Shown here: one piece after another, positions 4,955 through 39,681 of the stretch
Layout of the letters: each line of letters starts with the position of its first letter
Position numbering within the stretch: position 1 is the first letter of the stretch
From: Candidatus Babeliales bacterium
GTDB taxonomy: Bacteria > Babelota > Babeliae > Babelales > JBFXEV01
Length of the DNA: 64,000 nucleotides
Assembly: GCA_050179755.1 (NCBI GenBank)
Contig: JBFXEV010000001.1
Coordinates: 613,940 to 677,939, forward strand
Direction: 5' to 3'
Notes under the pieces: model-generated
Seen by the model: the letters and a program-made list of their open reading frames with translations, nothing else
Databases searched by the model: none
Told to the model about the DNA's origin: nothing
Made by a program: the position numbers and the translations under genes

Positions 4955-5030
4955 GTGGGAATAGCTCAGCTGGTAGAGCGTTGCCTTGCCAAGGCAAAGG
5001 TCGCGGGTTCGAATCCCGTTTCCCACTCCA
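4955..5030 (+). tRNA. tRNA-Gly (anticodon GCC), CCA encoded
   Basis: Hand-folded cloverleaf: acceptor GTGGGAA/TTCCCAC, D stem GCTC/GAGC, anticodon stem TTGCC/GGCAA with loop TTGCCAA, T stem GCGGG/CCCGT with TTCGAAT loop, discriminator T, CCA. Confidence 0.95.
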
Positions 5031-5093
5031 CTCGCCGCCGCTCCTTTGGAGCTAAGGCGTAGTGCCACGCATAGCGCTTCGCGTGAAGGTGGG
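5031..5093 (+). repeat. GC-rich repeat family 1, copy D (immediately 3' of tRNA-Gly)
   Basis: CTCGCCGCCGCTCCTTTGGAGCTAAGGCGTAG...GCGCTTCGCGTGAAGGTGGG. Shares blocks (GGCGTAG, GCTTCGC, GAAGG-GG end) with copies at 6081, 10296, 33069, 48778 and 56237. Contains the hairpin GCTCC-TTT-GGAGC. Confidence 0.5.
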
Positions 5094-5109
5094 TAGTCTT
5101 CGTTCTTGT

Positions 5110-5131
5110 AGGCTATTTTCTATAGCCTTTA
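5110..5131 (+). terminator. Possible weak intrinsic terminator after tRNA-Gly
   Basis: 7-bp stem AGGCTAT/ATAGCCT (5110-5116 / 5122-5128), 5-nt loop, followed by TTTAT. Short stem and a poor U-tract. Confidence 0.3.
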
Positions 5132-5133
5132 TC

Positions 5134-5186
5134 CGCTCATCCAGAGTGTTCTATAAAGCTTTAGCGAAATAGAATGTATCGAGGGG
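5134..5186 (+). repeat. Structured repeat family 2, copy 1
   Basis: Arms CGCTCATCCAGAGTG ... ATGTATCGAGGGG enclosing its own stem TTCTAT/ATAGAA (5149-5154 / 5169-5174). Confidence 0.6.
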
Positions 5187-5285
5187 CATTCAGGACTATT
5201 TCCCAAAGCCGAGTATACTGATACACTTACAAATAGCGTCCTTAAATTATTGTTTTTATGATTTTTTTCTCAAGGTACCACATAT

Positions 5286-6059
5286 ATGAAATCTATTGTT
5301 CAAGAAGGTTCTACTATCTCCAAGGCGGTTGAAAGTGCCTGGCAATCAGCCGGCAAACCCCACGAGTTTACCGTAAAAATCCTTGAAGAACCACAACACA
5401 ACTTTATTGGTATGACCACGCGATCCGCAAAAGTCGCTTTATTTTTTAAAGAACCAATATCATCTGGTAAGTCACACGATAAAGCAGAACGTTTTGGTCG
5501 CCAAGAACGTGCCGAGCGCAGTGAGCGCCCAGAACGCGGCGAACGCTCTGAGCGTGATAACCGTGGACGCGCTAAAAAGCAAGGTCGCGGGCCTCGCCAA
5601 GAAACTAATGGCAAACCATCCTCGTATGCAAAAGATTTTAGAAATGCGCAAGAAGAACAGCCTTCTTGGCCTAAAGAGCGTGAGCGAGCGCCGCAACGTG
5701 CACATAGTAAACCTTCTTTTGAACAAAAAGAGCAAGCTTTAGAGCATGAAGGTTCAGAAGATATGGCATTTGATGGCGTGTTCTGGACGCCAGAAATGAT
5801 TATCATGGCAAAAGATTGGTTGCAAGGTTCACTGGCTGCAATGGATTTGCCGCATGTGCACTATTCTACTGATGTGAATCGCCTTTATTTTAAAGTTTCA
5901 TTTGACGAGCCGGTTAATCCTAATATGGCAACCGAACGTCAAATATTCCGTAGCTTTGCAATGCTTTTAATGCAGCATATGCGCAATAGGCTTAAGCGCC
6001 CACTTAAGGGGTTTAAGGTTGTGTTGTCCCGCGGCGGTGTTGACGTTGAAGATGAATAG
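5286..6059 (+). CDS. jag: Jag/KhpB-like RNA-binding protein with an R/E-rich central repeat and an atypical C-terminus
   Basis: Jag_N-like start MKSIVQEGSTISKAVESAWQSAGKPHEFTVKILEEPQHNFIGM. Conserved position directly upstream of mnmE. Central ERAERSERPERGERSERDNRGR low-complexity tract. I could not see a clear GxxG/R3H motif. Confidence 0.7.
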   Translation: MKSIVQEGSTISKAVESAWQSAGKPHEFTVKILEEPQHNFIGMTTRSAKVALFFKEPISSGKSHDKAERFGRQERAERSERPERGERSERDNRGRAKKQGRGPRQETNGKPSSYAKDFRNAQEEQPSWPKERERAPQRAHSKPSFEQKEQALEHEGSEDMAFDGVFWTPEMIIMAKDWLQGSLAAMDLPHVHYSTDVNRLYFKVSFDEPVNPNMATERQIFRSFAMLLMQHMRNRLKRPLKGFKVVLSRGGVDVEDE

Positions 6060-6080
6060 AAGAGAATTTCTTTCTCGTGA

Positions 6081-6135
6081 AATGGCCAAGCCAGGCGTAG
6101 CTTTTGCGAAGACTGGTGGCGTTGACGTGCACGAA
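6081..6135 (+). repeat. GC-rich repeat family 1, copy E (3' of jag)
   Basis: AATGGCCAAGCCAGGCGTAGCTTTTGCGAAGACTGGTGGCG. Aligns by eye with copy D (AGGCGTAG ... GCG-GAAG-TGG) and with copies at 48778 and 33069 (reverse). Confidence 0.45.
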
Positions 6136-6146
6136 GAATAATCAAT

Positions 6147-6245
6147 CGCTCACCCTGAGTAGTCCGTCATTTATGTGTTTTGCATTAAGCTTCTAGAGCC
6201 ATGAGTATGTTGTGGGAATAGGCAAATGACGGATGTATCGAAGGG
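6147..6245 (+). repeat. Structured repeat family 2, copy 2 (long centre)
   Basis: Arms CGCTCACCCTGAGTAG ... ATGTATCGAAGGG. Perfect 10-bp internal stem TCCGTCATTT/AAATGACGGA (6163-6172 / 6224-6233). Confidence 0.6.
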
Positions 6246-6271
6246 TTTCGGTTTCTATCGAGGTTATAAAC

Positions 6272-7705
6272 ATGGCATTATTTCATGCCAAAGATCAAGA
6301 AACTATTATAGCGCAATGCACCCCTCAAGGTAGTGGTGCATTGGCGCTTATTCGCTTATCTGGCAACACTGCATTTGAAGTTGCAGATCAACTTTGTAAG
6401 CTTGCAAGTAACATAAAGCTTTCTGAAGTTCCTTCACATACCGTGCATTATGGCAGCGTGGTAGAGCACACCGGTGCAATAATTGACCGCGTGATGATTA
6501 TTGCCATGCGTGGCCCCAAAACATTTACTGGCCAAGATACCGTAGAAATTACGTGTCATAATAATCAATTTGTGATTGAGCAAATTATTGAACGTGCAAT
6601 TGCGTGTGGTGCTCGTTTGGCTACGGGCGGCGAATTTTCAAAACGGTCAGTATTAAATAACAAGATGGATTTGGTGCAAGCAGAAGCAGTGCATGAATTG
6701 ATCCATGCAGCACATCAACAAAGTCTCAAGCAATCGCTGTCTCAGCTTGAAGGCAGCTTTAGCCGGTGGATTATCACTCTTGAAAAGCGCTTAGTTAAAT
6801 GCTTGGCACTTTCTGAAGCTAGTTTTGAATTTCTTGATGAAGAAAATATGGCGTTTGGTGGGCAAATTAGAGAGATGCTTTCCGCAACGCTCCGTGATAT
6901 TACCACCATTAAAAAAACGTTTGATCAACAACAACAAATTAGAGACGGCATTCGCATTGCCCTTTTGGGTTCAGTTAACGTAGGCAAATCATCTTTATTT
7001 AACGCACTGCTTGAAAAAGAACGCGCAATTGTGACTGATATTGCAGGCACCACGCGTGATGTTATAGAAGCAAGTATGAGCGTTGATGGTGGGTTTTGGA
7101 CGTTTGTGGATACAGCAGGATTACGCACAACCAATGACATTGTGGAGCTTAAAGGCATTGAACGATCTCACGAAGAAGCTGCAAAAGCTGATATTATTTT
7201 ATTGATCTATGATGGTGCACGCGAACTGCTTGAATCTGAGCGTGTGGTTTATCAATCAATTTTACGTGAGTATGGTTCTAAAGTTGTTGTGGTTCAAAAT
7301 AAGTCTGATCAATTTTTTTCACCGCTCATCCCGAGTGAATCGCGTAGCGATTTGTATCGAGGGACAGCCGATAAAAAAGATTTTCAAAAGTTGTTAATCC
7401 TTAAAACCTCTGTAAATCTTCCAGAAACTATCATTCAACTTCATCAAGTAATCAAAAATAAAGTGGCAACTCTTTTTGCAAGCAGCGCATCACCCTTTTT
7501 GCTTAATAAGCGTCAATTTCAATTGCTTGTGCAACTTGAACAAACAATTAATACTATAATGCCAATGCTAGATGGTGCTGTTGAATATGAGCTGCTCTCA
7601 TGCCATGTGCAAGATGCTTTGAGCAACCTTTCTGAACTTAGCGGTAAATCTATAAGTGAAGCCGGCATGGATGCAGTATTTAAAGAATTTTGTGTTGGAA
7701 AGTAA
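6272..7705 (+). CDS. mnmE: tRNA uridine-5-carboxymethylaminomethyl modification GTPase MnmE (TrmE)
   Basis: Start chosen at MALFHAKDQETIIAQCTP (ATG 6272). The track ORF begins 39 nt earlier, inside repeat copy 2. G motifs GSVNVGKSSL, DTAG and NKSD, and the C-terminal FCVGK signature. Confidence 0.92.
   Translation: MALFHAKDQETIIAQCTPQGSGALALIRLSGNTAFEVADQLCKLASNIKLSEVPSHTVHYGSVVEHTGAIIDRVMIIAMRGPKTFTGQDTVEITCHNNQFVIEQIIERAIACGARLATGGEFSKRSVLNNKMDLVQAEAVHELIHAAHQQSLKQSLSQLEGSFSRWIITLEKRLVKCLALSEASFEFLDEENMAFGGQIREMLSATLRDITTIKKTFDQQQQIRDGIRIALLGSVNVGKSSLFNALLEKERAIVTDIAGTTRDVIEASMSVDGGFWTFVDTAGLRTTNDIVELKGIERSHEEAAKADIILLIYDGARELLESERVVYQSILREYGSKVVVVQNKSDQFFSPLIPSESRSDLYRGTADKKDFQKLLILKTSVNLPETIIQLHQVIKNKVATLFASSASPFLLNKRQFQLLVQLEQTINTIMPMLDGAVEYELLSCHVQDALSNLSELSGKSISEAGMDAVFKEFCVGK
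7323..7363 (+). repeat. Structured repeat family 2, copy 3, in frame inside mnmE
   Basis: CGCTCATCCCGAGTGAATCGCGTAGCGATTTGTATCGAGGG with hairpin AATCGC-GTA-GCGATT. Translated as (P)LIPSESRSDLYRG just after the NKSD G4 motif. Confidence 0.6.
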
Positions 7706-30293: not shown

Positions 30294-32957
30294 TTAAACC
30301 GGCCCTACTTTGAATATGCTGAGGTTATCTCTGTTAAGCACTCGCTTAACGGCATCACGCACTTCTTGAACCGTAATTTTTTTGATTTCTTCTATGCGCG
30401 TTACTAAATAATCGTGCGGATATTTCCTTGCATTTAAATACAAGAAAGTACTTACAATGGATCCATTTGTTGAATATTGATCATTAAGGTCATTTGCCAT
30501 AGTTTGCTGCGCAAGCACTAAATCATCTTGAGTAAATTCATTTGCTAGTGTATCGATTGTATTAAGAATTAATTCTTGTGCTTCTTGAACCCGTGTTTGG
30601 GAAACTTGGGTTTTAATAAAGACTTCGCCAGGTTCTTGATTTGCCCCTTGTACAACTGAGCCACCAATCCAGTAAAATGCATTTGTTTTTTCTCGTAAAG
30701 CAAATAATTTATTGTTAAACACAACATCAAATAAAAGTAATGGGATATAATCTTTATGTTTGCTATTGACTGAAAGTCCAATAAAACCAAGCATGATTTG
30801 CTCACGTTCAATGTTATAGGTGATTTCTGTTTCAGTTTTTTTAACTTGGCCATTGAATAGCTTGCGGTCTTCAACTTTTGGCCCGTGCCATTTACCCAGA
30901 GTCTTTTCTAATACTTCAATTATATTGATACCAGATAAATCTCCTGCAATAGCAATAGTTGCACCGTTAGGACTACAATAATTGGTGTGGAACGCTTTAA
31001 TATCGTCAAGAGTAATACTTGCAATCGACTCGGGCGTTCCAATAGGATCTTGGAAGAATCCTGCTTCTTCATACAGATGTTTGCCCATCAAATAACACAT
31101 AATTGATTGTGGATCATCCCAGTAGTTTACATAATCGGTGAGCGCAAGTTGTTTTTGCTTTTCTAATTTTTCTTGTTCAAATAAGGGGTTGCAAATAATA
31201 TCAGTTAAAAGTTCAAATGCTTTTTGAGCTTCTTTGTTTAGCGTACTCATTCGATATGTTCCTGGAGAGATTGCAATACCTATGCCTCTTTTTTCAACCT
31301 CATTCCAGAGTAGTTCTTTTGGCCAATTTTTTGTACCTTCAAATAACATGGCAACATATAGTGCGTTCAAAGGTGATTTGTCTTTTGGTTGATAACCGCT
31401 ATCGAATTTTAGGTCCAACTGTACTTCAATCTGTGGTAAATTATCATTGTGATAGTAGAGTACCTTAAGGCCATTTGAAAGGGTGTGCACTCCAGGTTTT
31501 GGAATGGCAATGGCAATAGGTTCTTGTGCGATTACTGTGTGCACGTACTTACCTTGCTCTACAGGAGACTGGCGCATTTTATTTTGCGAGAGCAAAAGAT
31601 CTTCTTGATTTACTTTCTCTTGTAGTTCTTTCCAAATGGGTCGTTCCTCTTCCGGAAGAGGTAGCAGTGTGCCCATGTGCCTTACTGAGCTGCGCAAGTA
31701 TTTTTTAATAAAGGTTTGTATTTCTTGTTTAATGTGCGCATAATCGTGTCTTAAATATTCAAATACGCCATCTTCTTTTTTGGTTGTAAGATAATGTGAA
31801 GCAATAGAAGATGCTTGAGCATGATTATTTTCCAGCATTACATAAAAGCTTGCTTCAAACATGGTGATTACTTTTGAAATTTCTTCAATTGTAGGCCCTT
31901 CAGTTTGCAGTAGAGAAAGTTCTTGCTGAATACAAGCTATTATTTTTTCTACATCTTCTTGTTGGTTTGGTTCAAATCCTATAAGCAGTATATCATGATC
32001 ATGAAGTCTCCATGTGTTTGCACTGATTGAATGTATCAACTTTTGGTTCTCTACTAATTTTTTATATAATCGAGAATTTTGCCCGCTACATAAGATATTT
32101 AAAAAGACATCAAGCGCAATGCTAGAGTATTTTTTTGAACCCGGAACTTCATATGCTATAGCTACAACTGGCTTTTGCACATTTCGGTAGAGAGTTACTG
32201 ATTTTGAGCAAATATCTTCTTGGTGAGTACATTGTTTTTGTTTATATGAAAAATTCGGTTTTTTGTCGCCAAAGTGCTTAGTAACTTGTTTAAGAGCCTC
32301 TTTAGGGTCAATATTACCTACAATTACCAAAACGGCATTGTTGGGAATATAATGCTTTTTATAGAATGCTACCAGTTTTTCACGAGATAACGATTCTAAG
32401 TCTGATTGATAACCAATTATAGGATAATGATACGGGTGATCAGGGAAAACAGAAGCCATCAATGTTTGGCTTACTTGGATGCCATAATCGTCACGGCAAT
32501 TTTTCATTTCTTGAATGACCACTTGAAGCTCAGCGTTAAGTAAGTCTTGCTTAAAGGTGCAATTGGTCATAATATCAGAAAGAATAGGGAGTGCCTCAAA
32601 CCAATGTTGGGTCGGTAAGTCTAAATAAAAACGTGTGCGATCATAGCTTGTATCCGCATTAAAAGAACCTGAAAGCTTGTTAACCGTTAGGCGAATATCA
32701 GTTTCGGACATTTTCTGAGTACCCTTAAAGCACATGTGCTCAAGCCAATGAGCAAGGCCCTTTTCATCGTCAGCTTCATGCTTTGAACCTACATTTACCC
32801 AAAGTTGAGTGCTCACGTTTTGTGTAGTTTTTACCGGCCGAATTAAGACGGTCAGACCATTTTCAAGCACATGTTTTTGCACGTGCGTGCTCGCATTAAT
32901 GAATGTAATGCAGAGTAAAAGGTTCAATGAGACTAGGTTAATAAGTAGTTTTTGCAT
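30294..32957 (-). CDS. Secreted M16 (pitrilysin/insulinase) family zinc peptidase, tandem-domain, 887 aa (paralog a)
   Basis: Signal MQKLLINLVSLNLLLCITFINA. Inverted zinc motif GLAHWLEHMCFKGT. A second inactive-type M16 half. Confidence 0.88.
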   Translation of the reverse strand: MQKLLINLVSLNLLLCITFINASTHVQKHVLENGLTVLIRPVKTTQNVSTQLWVNVGSKHEADDEKGLAHWLEHMCFKGTQKMSETDIRLTVNKLSGSFNADTSYDRTRFYLDLPTQHWFEALPILSDIMTNCTFKQDLLNAELQVVIQEMKNCRDDYGIQVSQTLMASVFPDHPYHYPIIGYQSDLESLSREKLVAFYKKHYIPNNAVLVIVGNIDPKEALKQVTKHFGDKKPNFSYKQKQCTHQEDICSKSVTLYRNVQKPVVAIAYEVPGSKKYSSIALDVFLNILCSGQNSRLYKKLVENQKLIHSISANTWRLHDHDILLIGFEPNQQEDVEKIIACIQQELSLLQTEGPTIEEISKVITMFEASFYVMLENNHAQASSIASHYLTTKKEDGVFEYLRHDYAHIKQEIQTFIKKYLRSSVRHMGTLLPLPEEERPIWKELQEKVNQEDLLLSQNKMRQSPVEQGKYVHTVIAQEPIAIAIPKPGVHTLSNGLKVLYYHNDNLPQIEVQLDLKFDSGYQPKDKSPLNALYVAMLFEGTKNWPKELLWNEVEKRGIGIAISPGTYRMSTLNKEAQKAFELLTDIICNPLFEQEKLEKQKQLALTDYVNYWDDPQSIMCYLMGKHLYEEAGFFQDPIGTPESIASITLDDIKAFHTNYCSPNGATIAIAGDLSGINIIEVLEKTLGKWHGPKVEDRKLFNGQVKKTETEITYNIEREQIMLGFIGLSVNSKHKDYIPLLLFDVVFNNKLFALREKTNAFYWIGGSVVQGANQEPGEVFIKTQVSQTRVQEAQELILNTIDTLANEFTQDDLVLAQQTMANDLNDQYSTNGSIVSTFLYLNARKYPHDYLVTRIEEIKKITVQEVRDAVKRVLNRDNLSIFKVGPV

Positions 32958-33068
32958 AAATAGAATCGCTTTTAGTATTAACTCAAAAAGTAGCTTTTGT
33001 CATAAAGTAAGCATAGCAGGATGGCGAGCTTTTTCAATTATTTTCCATATAATCACAAATTGAAATAA

Positions 33069-33106
33069 TTCGCGCAAGGCCGCCTGGCGCTTCAATCCTT
33101 GCCATT
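33069..33106 (-). repeat. GC-rich repeat family 1, short copy G (reverse orientation)
   Basis: The reverse complement AATGGCAAGGATTGAAGCGCCAGGCGGCCTTGCGCGAA shares AATGGC, CCAGGCG and TTGCG..AA with copy E. Confidence 0.35.
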
Positions 33107-33196
33107 ATTTTTACAAATTGTATAATAAGTAATAATAATATAATGTATTATGGTTAAATGGTGGATATTCTTCTTTTCTTATTAGTAAGGCAAAAA

Positions 33197-34261
33197 ATGG
33201 CCCAATCATTCAAAATGCTCACAATCCTTTGTTTGACTATCTCTGTAAGCAGTAAGGCTACGTTTGTAAAGATGGAGGAGTTATTTCACCCTCATCTTAA
33301 GCAGACAATTATTTTGGGTGCCGATATATATAGTAATGATATTTCTCAACAAGATGATGTATTGGCTGCGATACAAAATAACAAAGCATATACAATTTTA
33401 GAGGTTTTCAATGATGACAAGCCAATAAGTGAGCCTACATTACTTTTACATGCGCTAGAGGCAGAATTAACCCTTCAAAGATTGCCAGGCTATAAATGTG
33501 ATTTCGGAAAAGGCTTACGGCAACTTATTGATGCGAAATATTCCTTTAGAGAATACTATACTGAATGTATGAAAAAATTAGGGCAAGATGAAGATGCTAA
33601 AGCAGCAATTTTCATTTCTACTATTCGTGCATTTAACCAGGCACTTGCTGACGGCTTTGCTATACTCAAAGAAATTTCACAAGACATTGCACTTTTAAAA
33701 AATGATAATTTTTACTCAGCAGACCAGATAGAAATCCTTGCTATTGAATTGGACAAAATCGGTATTTTATGTAATGAAATAAATACTATTATTGCCACGG
33801 CGTTTCCAAAAGAAGTTGGTGATGATGAAACTGATACAATTACTTTTGTAGATTTGGTTTCGAGCGATACATTTATAGAAAGTATAAACGATTTGTTCCA
33901 TGGCGAGAGTAGTCTATTTTCAAACTTGTTTGATATGAGTAATTTATTATTTGAGATGCGAGTAATAGTTCATATTTTAAAAAATAAACGAGAGCCAGTT
34001 ATTTTTGTGTGTGCATATGAATCGCGTATTGATAATATATCAAGGATTTTAAAAGATTTATCATATATTGTTCAGACATCAAAAGAAAGAGATTTAAGCA
34101 ATCTACCAACTAGTCCTAATATTTATATTGGGGTGGACGCTATTTCTATTTCACCGTATTTTATATTGGCTGCAATTCCAGAGTTTAATGTTCAAGAATT
34201 TATAGCTGCGTGCAAAACATTAAAAAACAACCCGCCTGCAGATGTTGCCGCGGCGGGTTAA
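33197..34261 (+). CDS. Hypothetical exported protein (354 aa) inserted between M16 paralogs
   Basis: ATG 33197 (MAQSFKMLTILCLTISVSSKA signal) after TAAGG. No family recognised. Confidence 0.6.
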   Translation: MAQSFKMLTILCLTISVSSKATFVKMEELFHPHLKQTIILGADIYSNDISQQDDVLAAIQNNKAYTILEVFNDDKPISEPTLLLHALEAELTLQRLPGYKCDFGKGLRQLIDAKYSFREYYTECMKKLGQDEDAKAAIFISTIRAFNQALADGFAILKEISQDIALLKNDNFYSADQIEILAIELDKIGILCNEINTIIATAFPKEVGDDETDTITFVDLVSSDTFIESINDLFHGESSLFSNLFDMSNLLFEMRVIVHILKNKREPVIFVCAYESRIDNISRILKDLSYIVQTSKERDLSNLPTSPNIYIGVDAISISPYFILAAIPEFNVQEFIAACKTLKNNPPADVAAAG

Positions 34262-34274
34262 TGTTTCTTGGTGC

Positions 34275-36935
34275 TCAATTAACAGAACCTACTTTAAATA
34301 CGCTCATGTTCTTGGAATTAAATACCTTTTTTACCGCATCACGCACTTCTTGCACCGTGATCTTTTTAAGCTCATCAATACGCGTTACATAATAGTCATA
34401 CGGCAGTTCATAATCATGCAAAAAAGCAAACGAGCTTGCAATAGAATTATTGGTAGAATATTGATCATTAATAGTATTAATTAGGGCGTTTTGCGCATCA
34501 TAAAGATCATGCTCAGTAAACGAATCTGCCGCATGATCAATAAAATGTAAAATCATGTCTTGTGCTTCTTGTGCTCGCGTTTGAGAAACTTGCGTTTTAA
34601 TGACTGCATAACCAGGGCGTTTGGAAACGTTACTAATTACGGATCCTGCAATGCCATAAAAGGCATTACTTTGCTCGCGCAAGGTAAATAACTTTTTATT
34701 GAGCACTTGGTTAAACAGCGCCAGTGCGTGAAAATCTTTATGACGGCGATCAATTGATGGACCACATACTGCAAGCATTATTTGCTCACGTTCAATAGGG
34801 TGTAGTATTGTTTCTGGTTTATGTTTAGGTAACGTTTGATATGTGATATCTTTAACTCTTAGTCCCTGCCATTTGCCAAACGTATGCTCGACAATTTTTC
34901 GTAGGTTTAATCCATTCAAATCACCAACAATCACTAGTGTTGCACCTTGCGGGCTGTAATATTTGGCATGAAAATCATGGAGCATGTTGGGTGTTATGGC
35001 CGCAATGCTTTCTGGCGTGCCTAATGTGTTAGGGCATTGACCTTGCCACATATGCTTATCAATTAAATAATCTAAAATAGAATCTGGGTTATCCCAGAAC
35101 TTTTTATAGTAAGCAAGCACGTGCTGTTTAATTTTTTCTAAATTGTTAGTATCAAAACGGGGATTTGCAATAATATCTGTTGCCAGTTCCATGCTCATTG
35201 CAGCATTTTGTGTAAGCACGTTCATGGTAAATGAACCAATACCAGTGGTAACCCCTGCACCATAGCGCTCAAGTTCTTCCATGAGGTTTTTCTTGGAGCG
35301 TGTTTTGGTTCCTTCAAGAAGCATTGCATTAAGAATTGAGCAGAGACCGGGTGCTTTCTTGGGTTCATACCAACTATCAAATTTAAATTGTAAATTAATA
35401 GTTACTTTCGGGATATTATCATTATGATAATAGAGCACTTTAAGGCCATTGTCGAGCATAAATTCTTGCGGCACTGCAATATCATGCACGTTTGGTTCAC
35501 GCGCAATAACCTTATGCATATAGACCGGCGCTTCAACTGGTGATATCCGCTTTTTATCTTGCAATAATTGGGCATCTTCTTGGTTTGATTGTGTTTGCAA
35601 TTGCTTCCAAGTCTCATGCTCTTCAGGTGGTAACGGCATTAGCAAGCCGGTGTGCATTATTGAAGGCCGCAAATAATTGCATACCAGTTGTTGTATGTCA
35701 TGCATAATTGATGTTATAGTGCTCGTAAAATAATTAAAGAGCGCATCGTCATGCCCTGTTGCAAGATACAGGCGGCCAATAGTTTCTGCTTGACTGTGAT
35801 TTGATTCAAGCATATCAAAAAAACTTGATTGGATTTTTTGCACCGTCCATGCAACTTCATTTTGTGTTGGTCCATATATTTTTAAACGTTCAAGTTCATT
35901 CCAAATAATAGCATGAATTGTAGGTATTGTTGCCGCATCATGTGGTTCAAATATAATCCACAACGTATCAGCATCAAATAAGCCAAAAGAATGTACGCTT
36001 ATACTGGTAACAAGTTGTTCTTCATCAACTAATCTTTTGTATAAACGTGAATCTCTGCCACCCGCAAGAATACGTTCAAGCACTTCAAAGGCTATAGGTT
36101 GCCCTGCTTTTGCGCCCGGTATTTTAAATAGTGCAATGGCAGTGGGTTTTTGCACGTCGCGATAAAGTGTTATGTTTTTAGTTTCTATATCTGTGTGATT
36201 GCTCCATTCTTTTTGATGGTATGCCCAATTAGGCTGCATGTGGCCAAAAGTGGCGGTCGCGCGTTCAATAACATCATTAACTTCTACATTGCCAACTATC
36301 ACCAATACAGCGTTATTAGGTATATAATGTTTTTTATAGAATGCATATAATCTATCACGCGAGAGGGCTTGAAGATCTGATTTAAATCCAATTATAGGAT
36401 AATGGTACGGATGATCGGGGAATAATGCAGTTATCATTTCCATCATCAAATGGCGCAAAAAATTATCATGATGATTTTTCATTTCTTGAATCACCACTTG
36501 CACCTCAGCATTCAAAAGATCCTGTTTAAACGTGCAATTTTGCATCATATCTGCAAACATCGGGAGCGCCTCAAACCAATGTTGTGAGGGAAAATTTAAA
36601 AAATAGCGCGTATAATCGTAGCTGGTTGCTGCGTTAAAGGAGCCTGATAATTTTGCTGCAGTTAAGCGCACGTCAGTTTCACTCATATTGTCTGTGCCTT
36701 TAAAACACATGTGCTCAAGCCAATGCGCAAGTCCTTTTTCGGAGTCAGCTTCATGTTTGGAACCAACATTAAACCAAAGTTGCGTGCTTACTTTTTGTGC
36801 TGTTTTAACGGGGCGTACGAGAATGGTCATACCATTTTCAAGTACATGTTTGTGCACATGTTTACCAGCGGATGCTGTTAGAGCACACGCGAATAATGAT
36901 AGATATAAAAATAGGTGAATTAGCTTTTTATGCAT
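34275..36935 (-). CDS. Secreted M16 family zinc peptidase, 886 aa (paralog b)
   Basis: Signal MHKKLIHLFLYLSLFACALTASA. GLAHWLEHMCFKGT. N-terminal ~130 aa nearly collinear and highly similar to paralog a. Confidence 0.88.
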   Translation of the reverse strand: MHKKLIHLFLYLSLFACALTASAGKHVHKHVLENGMTILVRPVKTAQKVSTQLWFNVGSKHEADSEKGLAHWLEHMCFKGTDNMSETDVRLTAAKLSGSFNAATSYDYTRYFLNFPSQHWFEALPMFADMMQNCTFKQDLLNAEVQVVIQEMKNHHDNFLRHLMMEMITALFPDHPYHYPIIGFKSDLQALSRDRLYAFYKKHYIPNNAVLVIVGNVEVNDVIERATATFGHMQPNWAYHQKEWSNHTDIETKNITLYRDVQKPTAIALFKIPGAKAGQPIAFEVLERILAGGRDSRLYKRLVDEEQLVTSISVHSFGLFDADTLWIIFEPHDAATIPTIHAIIWNELERLKIYGPTQNEVAWTVQKIQSSFFDMLESNHSQAETIGRLYLATGHDDALFNYFTSTITSIMHDIQQLVCNYLRPSIMHTGLLMPLPPEEHETWKQLQTQSNQEDAQLLQDKKRISPVEAPVYMHKVIAREPNVHDIAVPQEFMLDNGLKVLYYHNDNIPKVTINLQFKFDSWYEPKKAPGLCSILNAMLLEGTKTRSKKNLMEELERYGAGVTTGIGSFTMNVLTQNAAMSMELATDIIANPRFDTNNLEKIKQHVLAYYKKFWDNPDSILDYLIDKHMWQGQCPNTLGTPESIAAITPNMLHDFHAKYYSPQGATLVIVGDLNGLNLRKIVEHTFGKWQGLRVKDITYQTLPKHKPETILHPIEREQIMLAVCGPSIDRRHKDFHALALFNQVLNKKLFTLREQSNAFYGIAGSVISNVSKRPGYAVIKTQVSQTRAQEAQDMILHFIDHAADSFTEHDLYDAQNALINTINDQYSTNNSIASSFAFLHDYELPYDYYVTRIDELKKITVQEVRDAVKKVFNSKNMSVFKVGSVN

Positions 36936-37009
36936 TATTGATCTCTCTATTTTTTAAGATGTTGTACTATTCTTAGTGTAGCGTGACTTAGCAATAGCGT
37001 CTAATGGAT

Positions 37010-37036
37010 AAAAAAAAGGCTGCTTTTAAACAGCCC
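37010..37036 (-). terminator. Intrinsic terminator downstream of M16 paralog c
   Basis: On the minus-strand RNA: GGGCUG-UUUAAAAG-CAGCCU followed by a U7-8 run (the plus-strand A run at 37010-37017). Confidence 0.55.
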
Positions 37037-37041
37037 TATTA

Positions 37042-39681
37042 TTATTTTATTCTGCCAATTTTAATTTTTGCCAGTTTATTGCTATCCAAGAATTTCTTGC
37101 ACGTTGCAAGAACGTCTTGCTTAGTAATTTTTGCAAGATGTTGTGCACGCGTATCGTAATAATCCATAGGCAAATGATAGCGTTCTAAGAATAAAAATGT
37201 TGCTGCAATGCTGCGGTTGGCCTCAAAGTTATTAACCATTGAATTGGCAAGTGCGTTATACGCTTGCGCAAATTCTTCATCATCAATGGTATTGCATGCG
37301 GTATTGATTGTATGTTCAATCGCTTTTTCAGCTTCTTCCAGTCTATCGAGTGAGACAATAGTTTTTATAAATACCATGCCAGGTTGTTTGTCGCTGCTGG
37401 CAAGCAAGGACCCGCCAATAGTATAAAAGAGCCCGGATTGTTCACGCAGCTCAAATAACCGAGAACTCATAGAGCCCAGCACGCCACCGGTGAATATTTG
37501 ATTGAATAACAGTAACTTATCGTATTCTGGATCAAGGCGAGAAACAGAAAGCCCTGCATAGGTGAGCACTATTTGATCGCGATTGATCGGGTAATTAAGA
37601 ACCTCTTGTTTTTCTATTGGCGCAAGTGGAGGGAAAACAGTTTCTTTAACTTCAGGGCCCTGCCATGCGCCGAGTGTGCGTTCAAGCAAAGCTGGAATAT
37701 CGTAGCCAGATAAATCACCCACAATTGCCATTATTGTGCCTTTTGGTGTGATGGCTTGCTTATAACATTGATTAAGAAGTTCTTGATCAATATTTTTAAG
37801 TGATTCGGGGGTGCCCATTGCTTGTTTTGCGTAGGGGTGGTTTTTATAAATAATCTCTTGTGCAAGTTGTGATGCAAACTCAGAAGGCGTATCCCAAAAG
37901 TTTTTAATGCTTGCATATAATTGCGAGCGCACTTTATTGATCGCTTCTTTAGGGAAATTGGATTCCGTTAAAATTTCAAGTAATAACCCAAGCCCTTTTT
38001 CAAGATCTTGGCTTAACATATTCATATTAATAAGCCCTGGTGATGCGCCAAAACTCATGCCGTTACTTTCAATCACATTGGCAAGCTGTTCGCCAGTATG
38101 TTTTTTAGTACCTTCAGAAAGCATGGCACTCATAAACATGTTGAGGCCTTGCAAGTCTTCTGGGTCATAATAATATTTTGTCTTTAAATCCAGAAGTAAC
38201 TCAACCTTAGGGATGTTTGGGTTATGGTAAAATAATATTTTTAAACCATTAGGCAGTGTAATTGATTGAGGTTTAGGGAAGTTAAATGGTTTTGGTTTGT
38301 CAGTGCAAATAGTATGCACGTGCACACCTTTTTCTACTTCAACTTCGCGCTTTATGCGTGAGAGCACGCGGGCATCTTCTTGGTCGGAGCGGTCTTGAAA
38401 ATGATGCCACAGATCTTTATCTTGGTCTTTGAATGGCAGCACTACGCCCGTATGCTCAAGCGTTGGGCGCACGAAGAAATGTATAATTTCTTTAATATCT
38501 TTTTCAATTTCTTCTGGGCTTTCAGTGCCATACGTAAACATAAAATTGGGTTCACCAAGTGCCAAGTAAGTTTGGCCGATGATATATGCCTGCTTTTGTG
38601 TGTTTTCAAGCACGGATAAGTATTTAGTTTTGGCTTGTTTTATGGCGCGCTTAAGCTCATCTTGGCTAAAGCCGTTTTGCGCAATATCTTCTAGCTGGGC
38701 ATTGATGATATCAGTAATTTTTTGTATATCTTTTGCATCGTTTGGTTGAAAGTAAATAAAGAGTATGCCGCAATCAAATAAGTCATACGTAAAAGCTTCA
38801 AGCTCAGTGCATAATTGCATTTCGTGTATAAGTTTTTTTTGTAATCGTGAGCTTTTGCCAAGCCCAATTAGCCAGCATAAAACTTCTAAGGCAAAGTCTT
38901 TGCTTGAACGTGCTCCAGGAACGGTAAAAGCAAGCGCTGCAAACGGTTGCTGCACGTCACGATAGATGGTTACCGATTTGCCACCAATTTCTGGTGAAAA
39001 GTAAAATTCTTCTTTTTTGTAATCAAAGTTTGGCTTAATACAACCAAACTCTTTTTCAGCTTCGGCAAATACTTGCTCAGGATCAACGTCACCCACCACA
39101 ACGAGCGTTGCATTATTGGGTATATAATGCTCTTTATAAAATGCAATAAGTTGATCGCGCTTTAGATTCCAGAGATCTTGTTTAAAGCCAATAATAGGGT
39201 GTTGGTACGGATGGCCAGAGAAAATGGATCCGATCATATCTTCAATAAGTGATGAAGTATAGTCATCGCGGTACATTTTAAGTTCCTGAATAACTGCCTT
39301 AAGTTCAGAATTTAATAGTTCTTCTTTAAAGGTGCAATTGGCCATGCAATCTGCCATAATAGGCAATGCTTGCCGCCAATTTTGGCTTGGTAGATTAAAT
39401 AAGTAGCCAGTGTAATCAAATGAAGTAAAGGCGTTACAATCACCAGAAAGCTTGTTCACGATCATATTAATATCTGACTCTGATAGCTTTTTGGTGCCCT
39501 TAAAGATCATGTGCTCAATTAAATGCGCAATGCCCTTTTGGCCAGTTTTTTCATCTTTGGAGCCTACGTTATACCAAAGTTGGATTGAGACCTTAGGTAT
39601 GTTATGGGTAGGTCTGACAAGAACTGTCAGACCATTTTTTAATTTTTTCTCAAATACGTGATTAATAGAAGCGTGTGTCAT
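37042..39681 (-). CDS. M16 family zinc peptidase without a signal peptide, 879 aa (paralog c)
   Basis: Starts MTHASINHVFEKKLKNGLTVLVRP with no hydrophobic leader. GIAHLIEHMIFKGT. Same two-half architecture. Confidence 0.88.
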   Translation of the reverse strand: MTHASINHVFEKKLKNGLTVLVRPTHNIPKVSIQLWYNVGSKDEKTGQKGIAHLIEHMIFKGTKKLSESDINMIVNKLSGDCNAFTSFDYTGYLFNLPSQNWRQALPIMADCMANCTFKEELLNSELKAVIQELKMYRDDYTSSLIEDMIGSIFSGHPYQHPIIGFKQDLWNLKRDQLIAFYKEHYIPNNATLVVVGDVDPEQVFAEAEKEFGCIKPNFDYKKEEFYFSPEIGGKSVTIYRDVQQPFAALAFTVPGARSSKDFALEVLCWLIGLGKSSRLQKKLIHEMQLCTELEAFTYDLFDCGILFIYFQPNDAKDIQKITDIINAQLEDIAQNGFSQDELKRAIKQAKTKYLSVLENTQKQAYIIGQTYLALGEPNFMFTYGTESPEEIEKDIKEIIHFFVRPTLEHTGVVLPFKDQDKDLWHHFQDRSDQEDARVLSRIKREVEVEKGVHVHTICTDKPKPFNFPKPQSITLPNGLKILFYHNPNIPKVELLLDLKTKYYYDPEDLQGLNMFMSAMLSEGTKKHTGEQLANVIESNGMSFGASPGLINMNMLSQDLEKGLGLLLEILTESNFPKEAINKVRSQLYASIKNFWDTPSEFASQLAQEIIYKNHPYAKQAMGTPESLKNIDQELLNQCYKQAITPKGTIMAIVGDLSGYDIPALLERTLGAWQGPEVKETVFPPLAPIEKQEVLNYPINRDQIVLTYAGLSVSRLDPEYDKLLLFNQIFTGGVLGSMSSRLFELREQSGLFYTIGGSLLASSDKQPGMVFIKTIVSLDRLEEAEKAIEHTINTACNTIDDEEFAQAYNALANSMVNNFEANRSIAATFLFLERYHLPMDYYDTRAQHLAKITKQDVLATCKKFLDSNKLAKIKIGRIK

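Follow-up and report, generated by a model that had tools for sequence, protein, structure and literature searches.

Oriented DNA hairpin repeats around jag and mnmE of a Candidatus Babeliales bacterium, probably partnered with a clade of small GIY-YIG nucleases

The DNA analyzed here, hereafter called the window, is a stretch of 64,000 nt from the genome of a Candidatus Babeliales bacterium (GenBank assembly GCA_050179755.1, contig JBFXEV010000001.1, positions 613,940 to 677,939 of the forward strand). Within it, a tRNA-Gly(GCC) gene, jag and mnmE follow each other, all on the plus strand, and three copies of a short repeat are found among them: in the spacer before jag, in the spacer behind jag and within mnmE itself (Table 1). 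These copies are real and biologically meaningful. We propose, with a probability of about 0.72, that they belong, as short DNA hairpins with a fixed orientation, to the repeats of the REP/RPE/NTS type and are partnered with a clade of small GIY-YIG nucleases.

Every copy follows the same plan, 5'-CGCTCA / P1 / GAGTR / hairpin / TGTATCGA / P1'-3', where P1 is a helix of 4 bp joining the two arms and the apical hairpin is referred to as P2. A preliminary description of this DNA had already reported three copies with common arms, and their positions hold: the 5' arm pattern matches exactly at 5134, 6147 and 7323 and the 3' arm pattern at 5175, 6234 and 7353, with no further exact arm match on either strand of the 64-kb window. 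The three central stems are likewise perfect and were rightly placed. Among the lengths given at that time (53, 99, and 41 nt) the first is correct, while copies 2 and 3 gain one base, because positions 7–10 of the 5' arm pair with positions 12–9 of the 3' arm. Absent from that description were the covarying helix between the arms, the placement of copy 3 within mnmE without loss of the reading frame, the dispersal of the family over many other genomes and the reading of the centre as an expanded apical loop.

Table 1. Positions and layout of the repeat copies and of neighboring features in the window
Feature	Position	Strand	Length	Layout and remarks
Copy 1	5134–5186	+	53 nt	Solo, tRNA-Gly/jag spacer; tag CGCTCA 5134–5139; P1 5' TCCA 5140–5143; GAGTG 5144–5148; P2 hairpin 5149–5174 (stem TTCTAT/ATAGAA, 5149–5154/5169–5174); TGTATCGA 5175–5182; P1 3' GGGG 5183–5186
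Copy 2	6147–6246	+	100 nt	Solo, between jag stop and mnmE start; tag 6147–6152; P1 5' CCCT 6153–6156; GAGTA+G 6157–6162; P2 6163–6233 (10-bp stem TCCGTCATTT/AAATGACGGA, 6163–6172/6224–6233; 51-nt top); TGTATCGA 6234–6241; P1 3' AGGG 6242–6245
Copy 3	7323–7364	+	42 nt (~14 codons)	Within mnmE, in frame; tag 7323–7328; P1 5' TCCC 7329–7332; GAGTG 7333–7337; P2 AATCGC-GTA-GCGATT 7338–7352 (stem AATCGC/GCGATT, 7338–7343/7347–7352); TGTATCGA 7353–7360; P1 3' GGGA 7361–7364
Possible second 3' arm remnant	6254–6264	+		TCTATCGAGGT, 2 mismatches, just 3' of copy 2; weak
tRNA-Gly(GCC)	4955–5030	+		
jag	5286–6059	+		
mnmE	6272–7705	+		tRNA modification GTPase, essential; hosts copy 3; reading frame open through the insert

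Evidence for the element comes from the pairing of its arms. In the window, P1 is formed by TCCC/GGGA in copy 3 and by CCCT/AGGG in copy 2, where the additional pair A6152-T6246 lengthens the helix to 5 bp; copy 1 possesses a defective P1 (T.G, C-G, C-G, A.G). Over ~180 copies of the family this helix shows strong covariation, its pairs being Watson-Crick in 91–98% compared to 50–92% after shuffling. The most frequent P1 types are TCCC/GGGA (53 loci), TCCT/AGGA (30), CCCT/AGGG (16), and TCTC/GAGA (5), and the TCCA/GGGG type of copy 1 was found at one locus only. At position 10:9' of the helix, 97 C-G pairs stand beside 74 T-A pairs, and at position 7:12', which the search pattern left free, 136 T-A beside 26 C-G pairs. 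For the 35 distinct copies of 42 nt, 94.3% of the cells pair (68.3% in shuffles) and the covariation score is 0.70 compared to 0.20, a value reached in 0 of 500 shuffles; compensatory changes were found at 4/4 P1 and 5/6 P2 pairs. Together with the at least 115 stretches of other genomes described below, this bears out the earlier view of a selected hairpin element that is not a product of chance. Single arms are less telling: with mismatches allowed, they lie only weakly above shuffled sequence (three matches were reached in 2/100 and 7/100 shuffles). The folding energies of the window copies are unremarkable as well (DNA z-scores from 0 to -1.95), and thermodynamic stability was dropped as a distinguishing mark. 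Consequently, the significance of the family rests on paired arms in fixed order and on the copies in outside genomes.

Between both helices lies a conserved, asymmetric core, whose 5' half is GAGTR and whose 3' half is TGTATCGA. Each of its two strands reads Y-GA-R, which is the context of tandem sheared G.A pairs. A K-turn was considered as well and rejected, since the bulge and the G.A positions misfit the Kt-7 layout; the tandem Y-GA-R observation alone was kept. Furthermore, CGCTC can pair with GAGTG, which would give a 5' hairpin or a pseudoknot. This pairing is used in the minimum-free-energy fold of copy 3, and its bases are invariant.

The apical hairpin P2, in contrast to the core, is free in both sequence and length, with tops that are mostly C-GNA-G triloops. 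The centres had been called unrelated and free in sequence. This is true among the three window copies, but across the family certain classes recur, namely the C-GNA-G triloop tops and a AGCTTTAGCGAA class; the latter includes copy 1 and is common to copies at five other loci, among them L002, L007, L025, and L119 (handles beginning with L denote the loci retrieved for comparison). The 72-nt centre of copy 2 is unique, and its top was found in no other genome of the comparison. High-GC phyla possess a form without any P2 (CGYTCR-P1-GAGYY-YRTCGA-P1'). Since the same element exists without P2 in high-G+C taxa, what appears as the centre in the window is an enlarged apical loop, and the hairpin it belongs to is in its basic form shorter and more widespread.

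Species-representative genomes were scanned for both arms with a gap of 12–42 nt, a range that under-samples copies with long centres such as copy 2. The arm search beyond the window yielded further copies in many other genomes: at least 115 genome stretches matched, and among the matches listed most belong to Babeliales/Dependentiae. The remaining ones come from at least six other phyla and comprise Myxococcota, Dehalococcoidia, Sphingomonadales, Solimonas, Armatimonadia, Margulisiibacteriota, and Gemmatimonadota. One Babeliales chromosome of 1.75 Mb carries at least 29 copies over 18 eight-kb blocks along its length. With a relaxed pattern, 195 copies were detected in the retrieved loci (984 kb). 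Some are arranged in tandem head-to-tail arrays, such as L119 150–480, with 50-nt units that contain P2, and L123 2813–3090, where seven 40-nt units without P2 lie directly downstream of a GIY-YIG gene. On chromosome OY968766.1 (L009–L118), 12/13 copies before ~950 kb are found on the plus strand, compared to 5/16 after this point. A replication-strand bias was rejected as explanation, as this switch does not follow the local GC skew and the copies of the entire family divide 80 to 82 with respect to it.

As enzymatic partner, the preliminary description had envisioned a tyrosine or HUH recombinase. The partner found instead is a small, stand-alone GIY-YIG nuclease: a single-domain protein of ~95 aa from a clade whose genes have inverted motif copies on either side. 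Among the relatives with data L002 is the closest; there, an open reading frame (ORF) of this kind with an internal stop lies between inverted copies (PF01541, E 2e-19). L045 and L103 contain intact genes of this type with the same bracket. The association was also approached from the protein side by means of five homologues of 60–74% identity, chosen only on protein similarity and extent of the contig. They stem from Gallionella, Binatia, Rugosibacter, Thermodesulfobacteriota, and a low-G+C metagenome contig, the latter encoding the nuclease closest to the Dependentiae enzyme (74%). A motif copy precedes the start by ~30–50 nt in 5/5 of these homologues and an inverted copy follows downstream in 4/5; at 4/5 loci, those of high-G+C taxa, the motif is of the P2-less form (e.g., CGTTCGCCCTGAGCTTGTCGAAGGGCGAA). 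In addition, a Methylobacterium homologue (51% identity) is flanked by the P2-bearing motif. Thus the motif flanks the gene at 6/7 homologue loci if approached from the protein and at three loci if approached from the motif. Copies on both sides of a single-domain GIY-YIG gene, inverted to each other, were found in L002, L045, L103, L123, L125, L126, L128, and L130. No other gene family recurs near the copies, save a few ordinary genes common to related genomes, and no transposase-like ORF family was found to recur within 800 nt of them.

The motif-nuclease-motif cassette of L002 is situated between rng and the next gene, whereas the corresponding junction of the window (0-nt spacer), L004 and L001 does not contain it. 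In L125 (975–3987; Rugosibacter CP010554.1) the motif-flanked GIY-YIG gene is part of a type I restriction-modification operon, where it sits between an N6_Mtase gene split into two ORFs and the specificity subunit; this arrangement suggests that the cassette inserted into hsdM.

A similar partnership has been described for SsnA, a single-domain GIY-YIG protein of 94 aa that binds the hairpin repeat NTS (CGTCATTCCCGCGMAVGCGGGAATCYRG) (Chenal et al., 2025, Nat Commun 16:2388; PMC11893778). SsnA binds and cuts NTS as single-stranded DNA (ssDNA) only, on one strand only and upstream of the hairpin, and does not bind RNA. Cutting is influenced by the three bases that precede the palindrome, and replacement or extension of the loop is tolerated; ssnA genes are typically bracketed by NTS/SRM repeats. 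Ssn proteins are defined there by a blastp E < 1e-10 to SsnA of N. meningitidis (CAX49033.1) at 75% cover, by cd10448 and by flanking SRMs (PMC11893778). The clade described here scores 79–161 bits internally, 53–74 bits against the UPF0213 structures 1ywl and 1zg2, and 25–55 bits against three nucleases flanked by canonical SRM or CCTC-tagged hairpins, which serve as a proxy for the Ssn family. These three are GIY-YIG proteins of ~33% identity: those of Shinella and Sphingobium are flanked by canonical SRM/CGTC hairpins and that of Sinorhizobium by a CCTC-tagged variant. Because such distant proteins are accompanied by other hairpins, each GIY-YIG clade appears to have its own hairpin class. 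As far as sequence scores can tell, this points to a separate clade of partner nucleases, nearer to UPF0213 than to the nucleases flanked by canonical SRMs and probably outside the published Ssn definition.

The window copies lie at orthologous sites that they share with relatives of 73–78% MnmE identity and are therefore old solo insertions. At the site of copy 1, degenerate remnants are present at the matching position of L004 and L001, and copy 1 itself is probably decaying, because its P1 is defective. The spacer between jag and mnmE measures 212 nt in the window but only ~21 nt in L001 and L004, and copy 2 is therefore read as an insertion. In L002, a scaffold gap of 100 N (L002 1328–1427), flanked by CCGCTCTCCCT...AGGG, hides the orthologue of copy 2. 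The arm-like remnant behind copy 2 may be a chance match, as 18 other matches with two mismatches exist in the window.

Two further observations concern the surroundings of these copies. The last eight codons of jag (6033–6059, GGCGGTGTTGACGTTGAAGATGAATAG) recur 82 nt downstream (6115–6141) as GGTGGCGTTGACGTGCACGAAGAATAA, with ~55 nt of hairpin-prone sequence in between (…CCAGGCGTAGCTTTTGCGAAGACTGG). The same layout exists in L002, and L004 and L001 have a single end. This duplication of the jag stop looks like a separate, old insertion with a direct duplication of ~27 nt. Upstream of copy 1, right after tRNA-Gly, lies a G+C-rich stretch (5031–5133; …GGCGTAGTGCCACGCATAGCGCTTCGCGTGAAGGTGGG…) that is partly conserved in L001 and L002 (GGCGTAGTG). 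Rfam contains nothing that matches it, and a blast comparison with the retrieved loci gave no match elsewhere.

Copy 3 deserves particular attention, as it is translated as part of MnmE. The protein encoded in the window is 100% identical to an MnmE of Candidatus Babeliales at NCBI and comprises 477 aa, compared to the typical ~459. The repeat is read as (P)LIPSESRSDLYRG / PLIPSESRSDLYRG and is placed in a variable loop after the G4 motif NKSD. Orthologues of copy 3 are found in the mnmE genes of L001 (2158–2204, with a related centre) and L002 (2504–2561). The arms and flanks of the L002 copy are identical to those of the window but its centre differs (26 nt instead of 15 nt); it is read in a different frame (…CIEGQP), and the frame is restored by length changes downstream. 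Thus the apical hairpin has been exchanged between lineages at a fixed site. At the corresponding site of L004 only a decayed 5' arm is left, which rules out its use as an empty site.

Across the family, copies are depleted from genes: 11/159 (~7%) fall within long ORFs, compared to 60% of positions drawn at random. Both orientations are represented among the intragenic copies, and their hosts elsewhere are real genes (PP-loop/TilS-like, DsbD_TM, ComEC, and heparinase-like). Units of a length divisible by three account for 9/11 of them and for 45% of all copies (binomial p ~0.015). Together with the Rfam, base-pair and orientation results given below, depletion from genes and survivors that keep the frame fit a DNA element under purifying selection after insertion, and not an RNA encoded on the sense strand.

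The proposed partnership starts from direct observations: the anatomy of the unit, its covariation and dispersal, its rarity within genes, where surviving copies keep the frame, and a GIY-YIG bracket that was found from both directions. The mechanism we suggest is modeled on SsnA. When DNA becomes transiently single-stranded, the hairpin folded on one of its strands would be bound by the nuclease. The enzyme would read the 5' tag together with the core, place a nick a few bases 5' of this tag and tolerate the apical part in any self-pairing form, as is the case for NTS loops. Copies would spread as non-autonomous miniature elements, seeded as solo units by a cassette that is or was mobile. Those landing in genes would presumably survive only if the protein tolerates the insert and the frame is kept.

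Several findings weigh against this proposal. The conservation of tag and core was partly imposed by the search pattern, which fixed most of the tag. No GIY-YIG nuclease gene lies within the 64-kb window, and the homologue of Sphingomonas paeninsulae, a pseudogene between rnc and era, lacks a flanking motif. The orientation of the flanking copies varies, with 3' arms facing inward in L002 and the five protein-side loci and 5' arms facing inward in L045 and L103. Neither a target-site duplication nor an exact empty site is definable at the mnmE, jag-mnmE or rng junction sites, the boundaries of the latter two being unalignable. Moreover, the strand of the motif is not associated with the local GC skew (80 to 82) and gives no sign of a preference for the lagging-strand template. 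Finally, ssDNA cleavage would be extrapolated from a clade that scores only 25–55 bits against the one described here.

One alternative is a second and independent nuclease/ssDNA-hairpin system. Here, motif and GIY-YIG clade (nearer to UPF0213/YhbQ than to Ssn) would form a system with its own two-helix, G.A-rich recognition fold, and the motif-nuclease-motif cassette, as an autonomous mobile element, would seed miniature copies that can settle in frame within essential genes; we consider this possible, yet doubtful. Somewhat less probable still is that the window merely holds relics, i.e., inert leftovers of a once-mobile family without current partner or function. There are only three copies in 64 kb, all at sites common to diverged relatives, the P1 of copy 1 is broken, corresponding sites in relatives contain decayed remnants, the L002 nuclease gene has an internal stop, and the window is devoid of such a gene. 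However, tag, core, P1 and P2 are still perfect in copies 2 and 3 despite the divergence of the host gene from those of relatives, and the centre in mnmE was exchanged while the arms stayed identical, which implies continuing turnover or selection.

A structured RNA, which had been named as one candidate, is improbable. It would be a cis-acting RNA (regulatory, protein-binding or a small ribozyme) transcribed along with tRNA-Gly, jag and mnmE, and indeed the window copies are co-oriented with the surrounding genes, the helices covary, some tops resemble UUCG or GNRA loops, and the CGCTC tag can pair with GAGTG, as it does in the minimum-free-energy fold of copy 3, which would give an H-type pseudoknot with P1. 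Yet of the copies flanked by co-directional genes, 20 have the sense and 38 the antisense orientation, and intragenic copies show both orientations as already mentioned. The P2 stems contain 953 Watson-Crick, 13 G-T, and 4 A-C pairs among 996 positions (G-U ~1.3%), and in P1 C-A mismatches are as many as T-G. On visual inspection, neither strand fitted the cores of the hammerhead (CUGAUGA/GAAA), pistol or twister ribozymes, and a ribozyme was thus rejected, in agreement with Rfam. Rfam 15 holds no family for the repeat, either at the gathering threshold (window and 12 loci) or at E ≤ 10 (5000–7450); it returned only tRNA, SRP RNA and a chance tmRNA fragment on the tRNA. The inability of SsnA to bind RNA points in the same direction (PMC11893778). 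Even less probable is a substrate of HUH enzymes (RAYT/TnpA) of the REP or IS200/IS605 type, or the inverted repeats of a DDE transposon or a MITE (a miniature transposable element with inverted repeats). The logic of subterminal hairpins, the inverted pairs and the tandem arrays resemble REP/BIME, and 30 copies lie between convergent genes versus 11 between divergent ones; against this stand the tag CGCTCA instead of GTAG, an asymmetric unit that occurs solo, no visible target-site duplication, and a bracketed gene that encodes a GIY-YIG nuclease rather than a recurrent transposase. A classical model of terminal inverted repeats (TIRs) was rejected, because the copies beside the nuclease gene do not point the same way at all loci. 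The probability of integron attC-like sites is close to nil: a folded single-strand site with a conserved base and a variable top is similar in concept, but the arms lack R''/R' core sites (RYYYAAC/GTTRRRY), the copies are not spaced as cassettes, with one of them within mnmE, and no integrase recurs nearby.

Besides their biology, the repeats leave traces in genome assemblies and annotations. Scaffold gaps of 100 N are located exactly at repeat copies in L002 (1328–1427) and L007 (about 5550–5650). Since these gaps coincide with copies, the repeats seem to break short-read assemblies. Translation of the motif gives recurring peptides (VRPEPVEG, HPSTSSGRT, RSSRV, PLIPS) that pad or extend called ORFs, for example at the C-terminus of P0184, in L007 5938–6432 and in L045 7113–7460. 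Such peptides are likely a source of spurious N- and C-terminal extensions in annotations of metagenome-assembled genomes. Thus the element accounts for both recurrent spurious peptide strings and scaffold gaps in such genomes.

Elsewhere in the window, three paralogous genes for M16 (insulinase-type) peptidases of ~880 aa occupy ~9.4 kb of the minus strand (30294–39681). The first two are separated by a plus-strand ORF (33158–34261), and the DNA of the three genes is 61–73% identical over the repeat families D1–D3.

If the pairing of motif and nuclease is correct, a second clade of minimal GIY-YIG proteins would join the Ssn-type systems, with a substrate invisible to the published SRM pattern, and current surveys would undercount such nuclease/hairpin systems. 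New site-specific ssDNA nucleases with a modular substrate would become available as candidate tools, in which the free apical helix could hold any sequence, a property the authors of the Ssn study want for ssDNA tools; UPF0213-like proteins would gain a testable functional lead. Should the doubtful case of an independent system apply, the uncharacterized UPF0213-like proteins would receive a function, and a stand-alone GIY-YIG nuclease would for the first time be seen to drive a mobile element of prokaryotes. As in Rickettsia, palindromic elements are found in frame in housekeeping genes of Dependentiae, a parallel between unrelated intracellular lineages.

How, then, does the repeat relate to known systems? 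The earlier description recognized no named family in it, and the repeat indeed matches no Rfam family and does not fit the published definitions of SRMs and CGTC-REPs. A literature search by sequence strings and by UPF0213/YhbQ gave nothing relevant. The likeness to REP and RPE elements that had been proposed is supported by dispersed, mostly intergenic copies, inverted pairs, tandem arrays and occasional in-frame copies, whereas membership among attC sites is not: there are no RYYYAAC/GTTRRRY boxes, no cassette array and no recurring integrase. Compared to MITEs and TIRs, the unit is asymmetric and solo, and there is no duplication at the mnmE or jag-mnmE sites. REP/REPIN-RAYT and IS200/IS605 systems share with it hairpins that bracket the gene of an enzyme thought to act on ssDNA, and non-autonomous copies that far outnumber the gene. 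In the present case, however, this gene encodes a GIY-YIG nuclease instead of a Y1-HUH transposase, and neither a GTAG tag nor a recurrent transposase-like ORF near the copies was found. We know of no strand-transfer chemistry for GIY-YIG enzymes. Rickettsia palindromic elements, reportedly described by Ogata et al. in 2000, resemble the family in behavior, as palindromes occur in frame in coding genes as well as in intergenic DNA.

An earlier catalogue lists the NTS/SRM repeats as CGTC-tagged REPs, with dRS3 and the Rickettsia elements RPE-4 and RPE-6 among them (Di Nocera et al., 2013; PMC3733652). These share with our repeat a tagged palindrome, head-to-head dimers, clusters, a preference for 3' intergenic positions, intragenic copies that keep the frame, and intracellular hosts. 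They differ by a CGTC/TGTC/CCTC tag, a stem of 8–9 bp that starts with A-T pairs, a loop of 4–5 nt and a CCA tail (PMC3733652), in contrast to the tag CGCTCA, the 4-bp P1 followed by an internal loop, and the unconserved tail positions found here. The published SRM pattern, HGTCWYN(0-2)YYVSBRHN(0-5)WNVSBRGN(0-2)RNCYNB, detects 12 SRMs in the 984 kb of loci, of which 0/12 overlap the 195 copies and none lies in the window. Canonical NTS/SRM hairpins (e.g., CGTCATTCCCGCGCAGGCGGGAATCCAG) nevertheless accompany the new motif within single 8-kb blocks in L010, L047, L060, L081, L098, and L111; two hairpin classes thus coexist in the same genomes.

The Ssn systems themselves differ in further respects: the NTS stem is a plain palindrome of 7–9 bp instead of a 4-bp P1 with a GA-rich asymmetric internal loop and a second helix, our repeat has no conserved TCYRG or C 3' of the hairpin, and NTS copies are intragenic in 2% compared to ~7% here, including an essential gene. 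In size, the NTS hairpin of 20–50 nt is matched by the 42-nt short form, whereas copy 1 with 53 nt and copy 2 with 100 nt are longer. There are also similarities. Both repeats are oriented by a 5' tag that is conserved and unpaired (CGTCA in NTS, CGCTCA in our repeat) and have the string TCA-TCCCG...GGGA in common, both are present in hundreds of dispersed and clustered copies with a variable apical loop, both are enriched in symbionts, and both bracket a gene for a single-domain GIY-YIG protein of ~94 aa in a motif-gene-motif arrangement. Taken together, the repeat and its nuclease are best regarded as a variant of the recently described Ssn systems and not as a new category.

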